A stretch of DNA of 64,000 nt from Octopus vulgaris (taxonomy: Eukaryota). The notes beneath the pieces were generated by a model. That model did not search any database, had not been told where the DNA came from, and saw nothing but the letters and a program-made list of their open reading frames with translations. Below are positions 1,435 to 61,524 of the stretch, piece by piece (position 1 is the stretch's first letter; every line of letters starts with the position of its first letter). Where the stretch lies: the NCBI GenBank assembly GCA_951406725.2, contig OX597816.1, positions 176,452,001 to 176,516,000 of the forward strand, in the 5' to 3' direction. Position numbers and translations under genes: made by a program.

Positions 1435-1481
1435 GACACCTGATGAGGGCTTGGAGGGTATATCAGCCAAAATGTTGTGTT
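1435..1481 (+). ncRNA. Minimal type-I hammerhead ribozyme, CpG-decayed
   Basis: GACAC-CTGATGA-GGGCTTG...CAGCC-AAAA-TG-TT-GTGTT. Stem I is GACAC/GTGTT. cGAAACG has become cAAAATG, consistent with two CpG deaminations. Confidence 0.7.
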
Positions 1482-2504
1482 AACAACAAACAAGATGAAG
1501 ACAAATATCTGTCAAATGTAAATGGTGTAAGATATAATGGATCATAAGCAGGCTGAAAGGGAACAAAGGTTTTGCATGCAACAGATGGGCAGGAATGGTT
1601 AGCAGTAAAAGCACTCATTAAATAAGATATTTTAAATGTGTAGGAGCTTCTGAAAAGTAGATAATAATTTTCTTTACCTCAGCAGTTTAATGTATTCTGG
1701 AAGCATAATAGCCAGAGTAAGAATGATGAGGCAAAATTGCTATTATTTCTACTGATAATAAGGAGGTTCTCATATGATGCATGATGGTGAAACATAGGCA
1801 TCAAATGTGGAAGATGTACAAAATAATGAAGCAAGCATGTTCCACTGGATGTATATATAACATATACACATCCACTGGACACACAATATTAGTCAGCATG
1901 AATGATGATAGACAAATGAGCATTCAAGAGATAACACTGTGCTTGTGAAAACATTTGATGAAGAAAGTTGTTGAATAACAAATGTCAAGCATCTACTGAA
2001 GATGAAAGTTACAAAAGACATAAGGAGGTAGGAGAAAGTGGTGAAAGCTGATCACAAGAGGTTGAACTCCTCAAAAGAAATGATAAGGACTGCAACAGAT
2101 GGCAAGATACTGTGCAAGTGAAGACCCGTTCAACTCATGCACGTATAAAAAAGGTAGATATAAAAATGATTACGATGATGATACACCCACATACATTATA
2201 CATATCACACACATTCACATACATATGCTCATGCGCACACACACACACAAAACCATATATCTACAGAAATAAATATCCACAAACAAACTTAAACACACAT
2301 ACAGTAAACAAATGAGCAATTCAACACTTTCAACCAGAATCATACAATAAAAAAAAAAAAATTAAAACAATTCATGTCAAATATATCTGTCAGGAATGGC
2401 ATTAGATATAGAAGAAAATATCTAAATTACTTGTAATTGGTGCTGTGTTAATTAGGCTTTGTTTTTTTTTTTTGCTAAATCGACAATAAGTAAATATATA
2501 TTTT

Positions 2505-4276
2505 CTAGCCTAGATAAGACCCATCCATTAAATTAGGCCCCCCATTGATAATCTGGTCTATTACTGAATCATATGAAGTGCTAGATCCATCATCAAGGCT
2601 GACACATCGAGGCAATGGCTCTAGAGTAGGAAGTTGTCGACAGAGAGATCTAATATCTTCACTTGCTCGATGGTAAACAAAACCTCCACTATTTGTGTTA
2701 CCAGAACCCATTCCTGATGATCCCCTTTTATGATTTGGACGGTATATAACGTTTGTGTTTTTATTATTATAGAGACACGGAATCAACTCTGCAGGGTCCT
2801 GATGTGGGCTGTAGAATACATGTCGAAAGTTAGCAGGAATTTTTATGGACAATAAATCTAATTCGAGTTCTCCTTCATTGCTGGAGGAGTCCCCTTCAGG
2901 TGGGGGTGATCCAGAATGAGGTTTGCTTTCAGGATCCCATTCTTTGTGTACTTCAGCTTCTAACACAGTAAGAGATTTAGCTGTTCGACTGACAACAGGG
3001 AGAGATCGGCTTTTGCCTCGCTGAACTTCAAAACCCTCCTCAGATTCAGTCTGAGGACTTTGATGTTGTTGTTGCTGCTGTGGTTGTTGCTTTTTCTTTT
3101 TCTTCTTCTGTTGTTGCTGTTGTTGTTGTGGCTGCTGCGGCTGCTGCTGTTGTTTTGGTTGCTGTTGTTGTTGTTGTTTCTGTTGTTGTTGTTGTTGTTG
3201 ATACTGTTCTGATTGTTGTTGGGGTTGTTGTTGTTGTTGTTGTTTTTGTTGTTGTGTTGGAGGGTACAATGATGAAACAAGAGGTTCTGCAAAGAACATG
3301 TTGGAGTCTTGTAGTTTTTTAGTTTGTGATATATTTTCATAACTATGGGAATTGTGGGTTGAAAGAGAAAATGGGGTGAGCGTTGTGTGACTGTTTAATG
3401 AAGAGGGAAGTGAGTTCAAGCGACTGTGAAAGAAACTTGAAACAGGGGCATTGTCTCTTGAGAAAATTCCAAATATGTCTCTTTGGGAGGTAAGATAGTA
3501 AGAAAATGATGCATGCCTGCCAGTTTGTTTAGCAGTAGGAGCTTTCTCAATCTTGGTTTCCGGTAGCAATAAGGGTTCACCTGAACTGTGTCGATTATGT
3601 TTTGATTTAAATTTACAACCAACTGGCCGAGGAACCTGTTCAAGATGGTCTTCAACCCAACATGGATTGTCTTTAAAATATTGCTTAGCCTGTTCAATGG
3701 CTACTTTTAATCGTTGACCTACTTCAGATTTATCATAGTTTTTTGTAGTAATTCCGGAAAATGGTGAAAATTTGGAACATTCCAAACTCAATCCATGAAG
3801 TTGACATACAAGATTCGACACATCTCGCATCATCATAAATTTCTGAGCTAGGTCAAGCTGTGCAGGTATATCTCCTTCAACGGAGTAATCCATGTACAGC
3901 ACAATAAATTTCGACAAAGACATACCTTTACAACGTTCAATACGCATTTTTTCTGCAACATAATCGACTGCAAGAGCAAAATAATCCGGGATGGTTCGAT
4001 GAGGGTGCAATTTAAACTGCATATTTTTTTTACATCTGAGTCGTGAACCAACAGAACAAAGAACAATAATATATTCAGCTTCCTGCATATTGTCAAGAAG
4101 CCAGTCATTAAGACCTTTCTCCTGAATCAGATGTTCTTCAAATAAATCAATGTGCACATTACAGTTGCAGATCTGCATCAAAAAAGCAGCCATAGCTTGG
4201 ACAACGTATTCATGAGCACAACAATCAGAAGAATAGAGTAAGAGAACATTTGGAAAATGCTGTTTCATGTCAAAAT
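2505..4276 (-). CDS. IL-17 receptor-like gene, last coding exon: SEFIR domain plus long polyQ-containing tail
   Basis: ORF with SEFIR hallmarks (VLLLYSSDCCAH..VVQAMAAFL..CNVHIDLFE..GLNDWL..AEYIIVLCS..FIVLYMDY..DIP..KFMMMRD). Acceptor ttttcag|AT at 4276 (phase 1); TAG stop at 2507-2505. Confidence 0.92.
3060..3256 (-). repeat. Coding (CAA/CAG)n trinucleotide repeat giving polyQ with a short polyK run
   Basis: (TGT)n/(TGC)n on the + strand, in frame inside the last exon. Confidence 0.9.
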
Positions 4277-58941: not shown

Positions 58942-59818
58942 TATATATATATATATATATATATATATGTATGTATGTATATATATATATATATATATAT
59001 ATATGTATGTATATATATATATATATATATATATATATATATATATATATATATATATATATATATATATATATATATATATATATATATATATATATAT
59101 ATATATATATATATATATATATATATATATATATATATATATATGTATGTATGTATTATATATATATATATATATATATGTATGTATGTATATATATATA
59201 TATATATATATATATATATATATATATATATATATATATATATATATATATATATATATATATATATATATATATATATATATATATATATATATATATA
59301 TATATATATATATATATATATATATATATATATATATATATATATATATATATATATATATATATATATATATATATATATATATATATATATATATATA
59401 CATATATATATATATATATATATATATATATGTATATATATATATATATATATATATATATATATATATATATATGTATATATATATATATATATATATA
59501 TATATATATATATATATATATATATATATATATATATATATACATATATATATGTATATATGTATATATATATATATATATATATATATATATATATATA
59601 TATATATATACATACATACATACATATATATATGTATATATGTATATATATATATATATATATATATATATATATGTATATATATATATACATACATACA
59701 TATATATATATATATATATATATATATATATATATATATATGTATGTATGTATGTATGTGTGTGTGTGTGTGTGTGTGTGTGTGTGTGTGTGTGTGTGTG
59801 TGTGTGTGTGTGTGTGTG
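58942..59818. repeat. Compound (TA)n/(TATG)n/(TG)n microsatellite
   Basis: Read directly from the sequence. Confidence 0.95.
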
Positions 59819-61324
59819 CAGGCAACCACTGAAAATTTCAGACCTGAAGTTCAATAGAGAGTTAAGGATCTTGGATCTGAACAGGATCTGTGCTCTTTCG
59901 GCCAAACAAAGTCTATATTTATTCGAACAATTCACGTAAGGTATGAATTTCTTAATTACTTTCCATTTAATCACTTGGAGTACTTTTTTTTTTTTGGAAT
60001 TTTCTATCATGGATCAGTACATACATACATATGTGTGTGTGTGTGTGTGTGTGTGTGTGTGTGTGTGTGTGTGCTTATCCCCCCACCCACTGCTTGACAA
60101 GCAGTGCTGGTGTGTTTGCATCCCCATAACTTAGTGGTTCAGCAAAAGAGACTGATAGAATAAGTACTATGCTTAAAAAAGAAGTACTGGGGGCAGTTCA
60201 CTAAAAATTCAAGGGGGGGCCCAGCATGTGCCTTTGTGTCTATGTTTGTTCTTTACCACCACTTGACAACTGATGTGTGTTTACATCCCTGTGACTTAGC
60301 AGCTCAGCAAAGAGAGCAATAGAATAAGTACCAGGCTTTAAAAAAAAATAAGTACTGGGGTCATTTCATTCAACTAAAAAAAAATAAAAGGCCTTGCCTC
60401 AGCATGGCCACTGAAACAAGGAAGGAAGATAAAAGAGATTTCTGTAACTCCACCATGTTTTTTTTATCAAAAGTAAATATTCATTGTGATTATTAAAAGT
60501 CAATAGATCTAAGCAGTTGAATCTGAACCCCATTTGATTCTCTTTCTCTTTTTTACTCTTTTACTTGTCTCAGTCATTTGACTGCGGCCATGCTGGAGCA
60601 CCGCCTTTAGTCGAGCAAATCGACCCCGGGACTTATTCTTTGTAAACCCAGTACTTATTCTATCGGTCTATTTTGCTGAACCGCTAAGTGACGGGGACGT
60701 AAACACACCAGCATCAGTTGTTAAGCAATGCTAGGGGGACAAACACAGACACACAAACACACACACATACATATATATATATATATATATACATATATAC
60801 GACAGACTTCTTTCAGTTTCCGTCTACCAAATCCACTCACGAGGCATTGGTCGGCCCGGGGCTATAGCAGAAGACACTTGCCCAAGATGCCACGCAGTGG
60901 GACTGAACCCTGAACCATGTGGTTGGTTAGCAAGCTACTTACCACACAGCCACTCAAACTTTTTTTTTATACCAGCCTGCCTGGGCCCCTACTCTTTTGG
61001 TATCACAACACAAAAGCCACCTTGCTTAAATTTGAATGAAACCATCCTTCACAGTTTTATTGAAAATCCTTTCATTCATTTATGTTCCAAATATCAAATT
61101 AATTAAGATATATTTAATAATGTTATTAAATCTTTATAAACACTTGAATATTTCCCAAATCAATTGAAACATTTCTCAAGAATTAAATGGTTGAGTATAA
61201 GATTTAATAGCTCTCAGCAAGTACCTTTCAGCTAAAATCACAACAAATATTTAGAAGTTTGCTCAACTTCCATAATATAAGAATGTTTTCAATTTTTACA
61301 TTAACTAATCATAGTTAGATGCAG

Positions 61325-61524
61325 CACGGATTTTTGTCAGTGAACAGGTCGCGGATTTTAGCGACGAAAATATTTTGACAAATTAAACTTAAATGTTGAA
61401 GTGAATCGAACGGCTTTTGTGTGTTTCTTAAATGGCTTATAAACATCTTCCACGCTGCAATTGTTTTCGTTTCAGCACACGATCTCAGATCAAATTACTT
61501 GCTATGCATGTACATCTCCGTAAT
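61325..61524 (+). mobile_element. ~200-bp hammerhead-bearing short element, copy 2 (G3:C8 hammerhead at 61333-61382)
   Basis: Reverse complement of 28397-28594 with few differences. The ribozyme motif is identical in both copies. Confidence 0.85.

Follow-up and report, generated by a model that had tools for sequence, protein, structure and literature searches.

A 64,000-nt stretch of the Octopus vulgaris genome (contig OX597816.1, here called the window; source genome 2.8 Gb) carries most of an IL-17 receptor D-like gene on its minus strand (2505–49544) and raises the question of what hammerhead ribozyme-shaped motifs are doing at ten places in and around this gene. An earlier note on this DNA had ascribed them to many active families of Penelope-like elements (PLEs) or retrozyme-like elements, and had suggested that the minus-strand copies might cut the receptor introns. 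The reading that we consider rather probable from the sequence is that the motifs are the pseudo-long terminal repeat (pLTR) ends of PLEs bearing type I hammerheads that would be weak and conditional, likely dispensable for copying and left mostly uncut in the templates, and that the intron copies are passengers.

Hammerhead-shaped motifs in the window are not owed to chance

A hammerhead-shaped motif was present at every one of the ten named places, giving 11 copies that belong to nine repeat families (A to I). All six 5′ boxes previously listed were found in the window; the box at 12851, UUGAUAA with U3-A8, was missing from that list. The copies at 28538 and 61333 belong to one family, and the pair at 34.5 kb forms another, arranged head-to-head. 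The description of the motifs as minimal held only in part, the helix II domain reaching about 60 nt in families E and I. Helix III had 2 to 7 inner bases across the window motifs.

A descriptor that allowed any Watson-Crick pair at positions 3-8, and that was written after the sites were known, gave four matches in the shuffled-control check proposed earlier; the 30 local dinucleotide shuffles averaged 0.13 matches, and none reached four. A looser descriptor yielded eight matches against 2.4 in shuffles (maximum 6); six were named sites and two look like chance. The copies at 12851, 24335, 25600 and 56838 and the minus-strand copy of the 34.5-kb pair were recovered by no descriptor setting because they are decayed or irregular, and these five were confirmed through their family copies. 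Without the 3-8 swap, the stricter descriptor found no fully canonical motif in the window. The Rfam/Infernal search that had also been advised came out negative, none of the 124 cmscan matches at E ≤ 10 being to any hammerhead family. In minimum free energy folding, only the two family A copies surpassed their shuffles (z of -3.5 and -3.1), and the other nine of the 11 copies lay between -1.3 and +0.7. Across 520 fetched loci there were 326 matches, against 0 and 0 in two shuffles, a count that is no estimate of density, since the central matches were selected by the queries. On these shuffle comparisons, a chance origin of the motifs was rejected.

The three helices follow the type I order. 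In the nine families, most copies retain helices I and II as well as A15.1-U16.1. The canonical core (C3 U4 G5 A6 N7 G8 A9 / G12 A13 A14) is present in E, F and I, and in G for the 5′ box; it is absent in A, B, C and H and in most copies of D. Position 3-8 is C-G, U-A or G-C as the majority in every family examined. In all families except G, most copies have G5, G12-A15.1, U16.1 and H17.

Six more motif types were observed in the flanks of fetched loci (L452, L354, L018, L352, L013 and L287), three with U3-A8 and three with C3-G8; two of the six combine a 6-bp helix I with a 4-nt palindrome, as canonical type I hammerheads of animals typically do. Within the window, what may be part of a further hammerhead 3′ box, with its palindrome, lies at 25420–25440 (minus strand), bordering a (TA)n tract.

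Core variants are fixed within families

Each site was searched genome-wide, with 40 candidates scored per search and 20–30 loci (L numbers) fetched, best matches first. First-look candidates numbered 1,100 for A, 200 for B, 3,929 for C, 2,585 for D, 943 for E, 1,099 for F, 2,640 for G, 1,099 for H and 1,291 for I.

Family A departs from the consensus by a G3-C8 pair, its GUGAACA box occurring in 29/30 fetched loci. In the window it is represented by a solo pLTR of about 205 bp (61317–61522, plus strand; hammerhead 61333–61382, predicted cut after 61375) with a 10-bp target-site duplication (TSD), and by a second copy in a (TA)n tract (28398–28594, minus strand), whose hammerhead (28538–28587) is intact and sense to the receptor. 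Whole-genome exact counts were 4,443 for the A core and 8,088 for the A post-cut segment (reversed control 0 each). A loose G3-C8 pattern was discarded as a counter: it gave 14,807 matches against 6,357 in its control, and the second commonest type lacked helix I and came from another repeat.

Family B carries A9C (CUGAUGC in 28/30 loci), and its window copy (29171–29465, plus strand; hammerhead 29302–29341) is a pLTR copy in (TA)n with an inverted 5′ piece and a tail. Family C carries A6U, with U6 in 30/30 fetched loci; its pattern had 15,703 genome matches (reversed control 0), and among the first 100 listed, counted by eye, 96 had U6 and N7 was U in 41, A in 25, C in 19 and G in 11. The window copy of C is a 5′-truncated PLE (25500–27340, minus strand) comprising a remnant of the reverse transcriptase (RT) thumb and GIY-YIG domain (26076–27340), a low-complexity 3′ untranslated region and the A6U hammerhead (25600–25637). 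Family D is mostly U4C: CCGACGA occurred in 21/30 and CUGACGA in 8/30 fetched loci, and among the first 100 listed of 10,714 genome matches (reversed control 0), 79 had C4, counted by eye. The U4 copies of D may form a subfamily or result from CpG decay. Its short window copy in (TA)n (24236–24447, minus strand; hammerhead 24335–24369) has U4 and a broken first pair of helix I. Family H shows UUGAYAA in 19/20 loci; its window copy (12356–13000, plus strand) contains a hammerhead-like motif at 12850–12891 that has U3-A8 and in which helix II is irregular at its base.

Among the families with a canonical 5′ box, CUGAAGA occurred in 15/18 parsed F loci (25 fetched) and 16/18 parsed I loci (20 fetched), and CUGAUGA in 15/24 parsed E loci (25 fetched) and 20/20 G loci. 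G12 was intact in only 5/20 G copies, the sampled copies being mostly G12A at a CpG, as is the window hammerhead (1435–1481). The E pair (34391–34910, both strands) combines a plus-strand motif with canonical core and long helix II (34557–34640) and a minus-strand motif with A14G (34428–34510). The F copy is a pLTR copy (56790–57133, minus strand) with a canonical core and a decayed helix I in its hammerhead (56838–56890), and the I copy (21330–21763, minus strand) has a hammerhead at 21362–21454 with canonical core, long helix II and 8-nt palindromic helix III. Core differences, which the earlier note had treated as diversity, are fixed family traits, departing from the consensus in whole families.

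At least four of the families are linked to Penelope-like elements

PLE identity rests here on motifs and architecture, with clade assigned by motif. By these features, the motif sites are pLTR ends of PLEs in families A, B, C and F, and by inference in the rest. The proposal that many distinct ribozyme-bearing PLE families were active is supported by nine families with predicted hammerheads; RT/GIY-YIG coding could be tied to four of these (A, B, C and F) and weakly to H.

Full pLTR-ORF-pLTR units (ORF, open reading frame) of family B were found in L331, L332 and L345, with ORFs of 1,310–1,312 aa containing YVDD, CX4CxxC and YVGET motifs, and the inverted tail of the window copy corresponds to the start of this ORF. 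Family B is the youngest, a very young burst with many identical copies: 74/150 scored matches of its endonuclease were 100% identical. C9 was present in 37/37 motif matches from 30 ORF-selected loci, and an older copy, L076 (86%), retains A9. Ahead of its RT, the ORF at L331:2275-6213 (minus strand) carries long inserts that are Asn-rich and low in complexity, a feature also described in rotifer PLEs.

In family A, one of the 30 first-fetched loci had PLE coding upstream, and a non-autonomous status was considered and rejected once L348 revealed the ORF link. In all 30 loci picked by family A ORF DNA, the G3-C8 box follows after about 0.8 kb, and L422 contains a family A ORF of 1,025 aa, 55% identical to that of family B over 815 aa. 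Coding was linked to family C by the GIY-YIG remnant in the window and in 3/30 loci, and to family F in 15/25 loci (query-supplying loci included in both counts); a Hydra-type linker is present in sister loci of the F copy. Twelve further 8-kb stretches gave one weak PLE coding match each for H and I. The anatomy of PLEs was also apparent in (TA)n insertion, head-to-head inverted arms, an optional tail and two 3′ ends, with TSDs of 7–14 bp in some copies (by eye).

The C and D motifs were considered as two pLTRs of one element, a possibility rejected on finding a separate 885-bp repeat inserted at 24497–25381. This minus-strand piece belongs to a high-copy repeat that always starts at the same point, contains duplications of 118 bp and is longer in other loci; its 10,712 first-look candidates are mostly shared with its neighbours in the query. 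The 2.4-kb (TA)n tract at 27338–29786 received no fewer than two PLE insertions, from families A and B. Next to it comes a different repeat, in which 244 bp are directly duplicated (29748–29991 and 30580–30823). PLE ends are frequently stacked upon each other within such tracts.

Family G differs in structure. Its window copy (1080–1547, plus strand) comprises a tRNA-like A/B-box segment (about 1283–1352), an (AAT)n spacer and the hammerhead. By strict patterns, B-box-like motifs occurred in 9/20 loci and A-box-like motifs in 6/20, and ARAGORN called no tRNA. Several copies (L201–L220) begin at the tRNA-like part and some reach further 5′. This arrangement suggests that family G may be a hammerhead-bearing short interspersed element (SINE).

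The fold is compensated between families A and B

When family A was compared with its sister family B, 11/11 compared pairs were kept, four of them via double changes, in helices I, II and III and at 3-8. Only 8/500 shuffles reached this conservation, in a comparison of three distinct rows. The stem covariation that the earlier note had asked about was thus found as compensatory changes, and with three distinct rows it is suggestive of selection on the hammerhead fold between A and B. Two family A subfamilies differ in loop II and have the same core and stems. The hammerhead motifs would likely cut only weakly.

Family A templates were probably uncut

In long family A copies AGAUG is preceded by a pyrimidine tract, whereas short copies start at AGAUG. 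The base before this start was G in 825/2,051 exact matches. Among the first 30 loci, G preceded the start in 14/21 short or inverted copies against 0/9 long ones, and in an independent family A set it did so in 15/16 copies ending exactly there; this set left out ORF- and start-selected loci, and C and T were not scorable at that position. An extra G can arise when an RT copies a cap, and the one at family A 5′ ends is likely of this origin.

The predicted cut lies 59 nt downstream of the start site. Post-cut segments lacking U17 before them numbered 118/8,088, against 201 and 105 for the neighbouring bases; the element truly begins there in 19, 5 and 9 of 30 loci each, corresponding to about 75 copies against 34 and 32, with some cut-site cases and one +1 case borderline or due to helix I symmetry. 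About 1% of family A copies therefore start at the predicted cut, a weak excess at most, and about 99% keep sequence 5′ of it. Taken together, a single start site with an extra G and the few starts at the cut point to templates of capped, uncut sense RNA, from which most family A copies were likely made. Four contig sets, presumed to be RNA, cover the L422 pLTR deeply; as assembled contigs they are uninformative on ends, strand and cleavage.

A proposed mechanism and the points against it

These data fit a cycle in which the PLE would be transcribed from a start about 15 nt before helix I in the upstream pLTR, as suggested by the fixed 5′ boundary, an initiator-like context and the extra G. 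The RT would then prime inside the RNA at two tail sites past the hammerhead, matching the two 3′ ends seen. Priming near the RNA 5′ end would give solo pLTRs of 140–205 bp, which would explain why hammerheads outnumber ORFs. The endonuclease would insert copies into (TA)n, often with a fold-back inverted arm, both of which are observed, and most templates would remain uncut. The fold would be selected in master elements, where compensatory changes including 3-8 are seen, and cores may drift weaker through A9C, A6U and U4C, each seen as fixed.

PLE hammerheads have been reported as weak and dimer- or protein-dependent (PMC4209133, PMC11167929). In a PLE hammerhead, a C3G/G8C change restores activity in part; cutting depends on protein, insertion in vitro does not require cutting, and internal priming is known for an Anolis PLE (PMC11167929). 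We put forward more tentatively, and hold to be possible rather than probable, that octopus PLEs use natural, active hammerheads with altered cores, that the family A ribozyme with its G3-C8 pair cuts when dimeric and aided by protein, that the weakening by A9C, A6U and U4C was selected as sparing the capped template, and that the cap G at thousands of 5′ ends would be the first genomic record of PLE copying of uncut, capped sense RNA by internal priming.

Several observations weigh against the proposed cycle and the PLE assignment behind it. PLE coding within 1.5 kb was found in 0/30 D, 0/25 E, 0/20 G and 0/20 I loci, and weakly in 1/20 H loci. Pfam gave RVT_1 only below threshold (E 0.0055) and no GIY-YIG match. 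Most per-family samples, being the best matches to the window copy, are biased toward window alleles. No extra G was seen by eye in B or D, and several of the G junctions in A are explicable by microhomology in fold-back arms or TSDs. Just 5′ of the family A start, L422:6530-6565 contains a branch-point-like motif, a pyrimidine tract and YAG, absent from the window copy; these may mark where a pLTR intron ends, by analogy with Drosophila virilis Penelope. Finally, copies starting at the predicted cut are perhaps twice as frequent as at neighbouring bases, so that some cutting may occur.

Alternative explanations

The best-surviving alternative is that the variant motifs are catalytically dead, the fold being kept for protein binding, promoter function or RT positioning, or just inherited. 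A9C arose in the youngest and most active family, the older L076 having A9, A6U and U4C are without compensation, about 99% of family A copies retain the sequence 5′ of the cut, and Naiad PLEs thrive without canonical hammerheads (PMC8557442). Nevertheless, the G3-C8 swap takes two transversions and yet preserves a pair required by the active fold, G5, G12-A15.1, U16.1 and H17 prevail in all families but G, and N7 varies freely in C, so that we regard dead motifs as improbable, at somewhat less than one chance in five.

It is much less probable that the short families A and D are non-autonomous retrozymes replicating via self-cleaved circular RNAs. A constant length near 200 bp and copy numbers in the thousands would suit such elements, and non-LTR retrozymes have been proposed to derive from pLTRs (bioRxiv 10.64898/2026.07.22.740005), but family A is contiguous with an ORF-bearing PLE and copy ends fit a linear start plus a PLE tail rather than a permuted circle. 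The retrozyme part of the earlier proposal also found no support in arrangement, as no tandem, head-to-tail arrays were present in the window or in 30 A and 30 D loci, where copies are monomers or head-to-head pairs.

Hammerhead copies in the host receptor gene

The host gene was identified by protein matches and exon mapping. Its product contains a SEFIR domain (E 1e-27, Pfam), and its closest named proteins are from Octopus bimaculoides and O. vulgaris. Coding exons lie near 49544, 47312, 43504, 35100, 32999, 20107, 13705, 11239 and 4268–2505; upstream of these, the first two coding exons of the gene lie past the window's right end. Ten of the 11 hammerhead copies are intronic; the 1435 copy lies 3′ of the stop codon. 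As the earlier note had stated, minus-strand copies are in the sense orientation of the receptor, which applies to six of the ten intronic copies.

Co-transcriptional cutting of the pre-mRNA by these copies, with altered expression, would be favoured by their orientation and by the two that are intact, 28538–28587 and 21362–21454. The latter combines a canonical core with a self-complementary helix III (-10.3 kcal/mol as a homodimer), and is the best candidate for activity among the sense copies. The other four are damaged relative to their own families: 24335 in the first pair of helix I, 25600 by loss of the palindrome in addition to A6U, 34428–34510 by A14G and 56838 in helix I. Furthermore, no two sense copies belong to one family, and among five helix III strands tested the best cross-pairing was -2.7 kcal/mol. 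With PLE hammerheads reported as weak, and with sense copies that are not depleted and are recent insertions among tens of thousands alike, we consider intron cutting very improbable, and a regulatory role of the intronic copies unlikely.

The receptor introns also hold RT and transposase remnants (45245–46603, 23477–24084, 57313–57919, 33902–34318 and 55925–56536), which, from their motifs, we take to be CR1/L2-type and RTE-type RTs of long interspersed elements and mariner-like transposases. An inverted repeat pair of 129 bp (8715–8843 and 9584–9712; 98%) encloses about 740 bp, and the inner part of this element (9197–9582) recurs at 53053–53437; it resembles a miniature inverted-repeat transposable element or DNA transposon.

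Comparison with known systems

The role of PLE hammerheads, and whether the template is sense or antisense, cut or uncut, are described as open questions (PMC3846280, PMC8557442, PMC11167929). In the octopus genome, four "invariant" core positions are naturally mutated in young families whose ORFs are intact, and this series, with a countable 5′-end signature, makes both questions directly testable. With a natural G3-C8 core, a single genome would hold three of the four Watson-Crick pairs possible at 3-8. Such motifs escape both Rfam and the standard CUGANGA descriptors, so that in cases like this one hammerhead counts for animal genomes are likely too small, by tens of thousands each. In the literature covered, G3-C8 was found only as an engineered mutant, and there was no report of family-wide U4C, A9C or A6U, of octopus PLE hammerheads or of a cap G in PLEs; Lunse et al. 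2017, on PLE hammerhead variants, could already describe some of the cores.

The closest known motifs are the minimal type I hammerheads of PLEs (Cervera and de la Pena 2014, PMC4209133), which share the pLTR location, a palindromic helix III of 0–2 bp, an extra base between 9 and 10.1, G10.1-C11.1 and the occurrence of many divergent, mostly solo families per genome; U3-A8 was already known there in Schistosoma. The octopus families differ in family-wide G3-C8, A9C, A6U and U4C, none of which appears in that paper's text or alignment as far as covered, in an inserted base that is G in A and B rather than the H of its consensus, and in the helix II of about 60 nt in E and I; no cephalopod is included in the covered part of its alignment. 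Natural core variants are also on record (Perreault et al. 2011, PMC3088659), where U3-A8, A6C and a viroid U4C have reduced activity and are called rare, whereas the octopus has single departures in families of about 10,000 copies.

With PAc Poseidon of Anolis (Frangieh et al. 2024, PMC11167929), the octopus elements share the placement of the hammerhead where pLTR and ORF meet, a tail defined by two sites of internal priming, AT-rich targets and uncut RNA as the main substrate. In PAc the C3G/G8C rescue is engineered and the evidence comes from in vitro work; in the octopus G3-C8 is natural and the evidence for uncut templates is genomic. Among the PLE clades of Craig et al. 2021 (PMC8557442), families A, B and C share with Neptune/Nematis-type elements a CX3-4CxxC linker before a C-terminal GIY-YIG, and family F shares the CxCX5C linker of Hydra PLEs, together with the (TA)n targeting, inverted 5′ copies and tails seen across these clades. 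The family B ORF is long by comparison (1,312 aa) and has Asn-rich inserts.

Family G, like the schistosome Sm-alpha hammerhead SINEs (PMC6765202) and non-LTR retrozymes, combines a hammerhead with a tRNA-like segment bearing pol III boxes; it differs in consisting of dispersed monomers with a minimal hammerhead that often reach 5′ of the tRNA-like part, and no partner element for it was found. In summary, the kind of element is known, and what is new is the occurrence of core variants at scale together with a testable template record.

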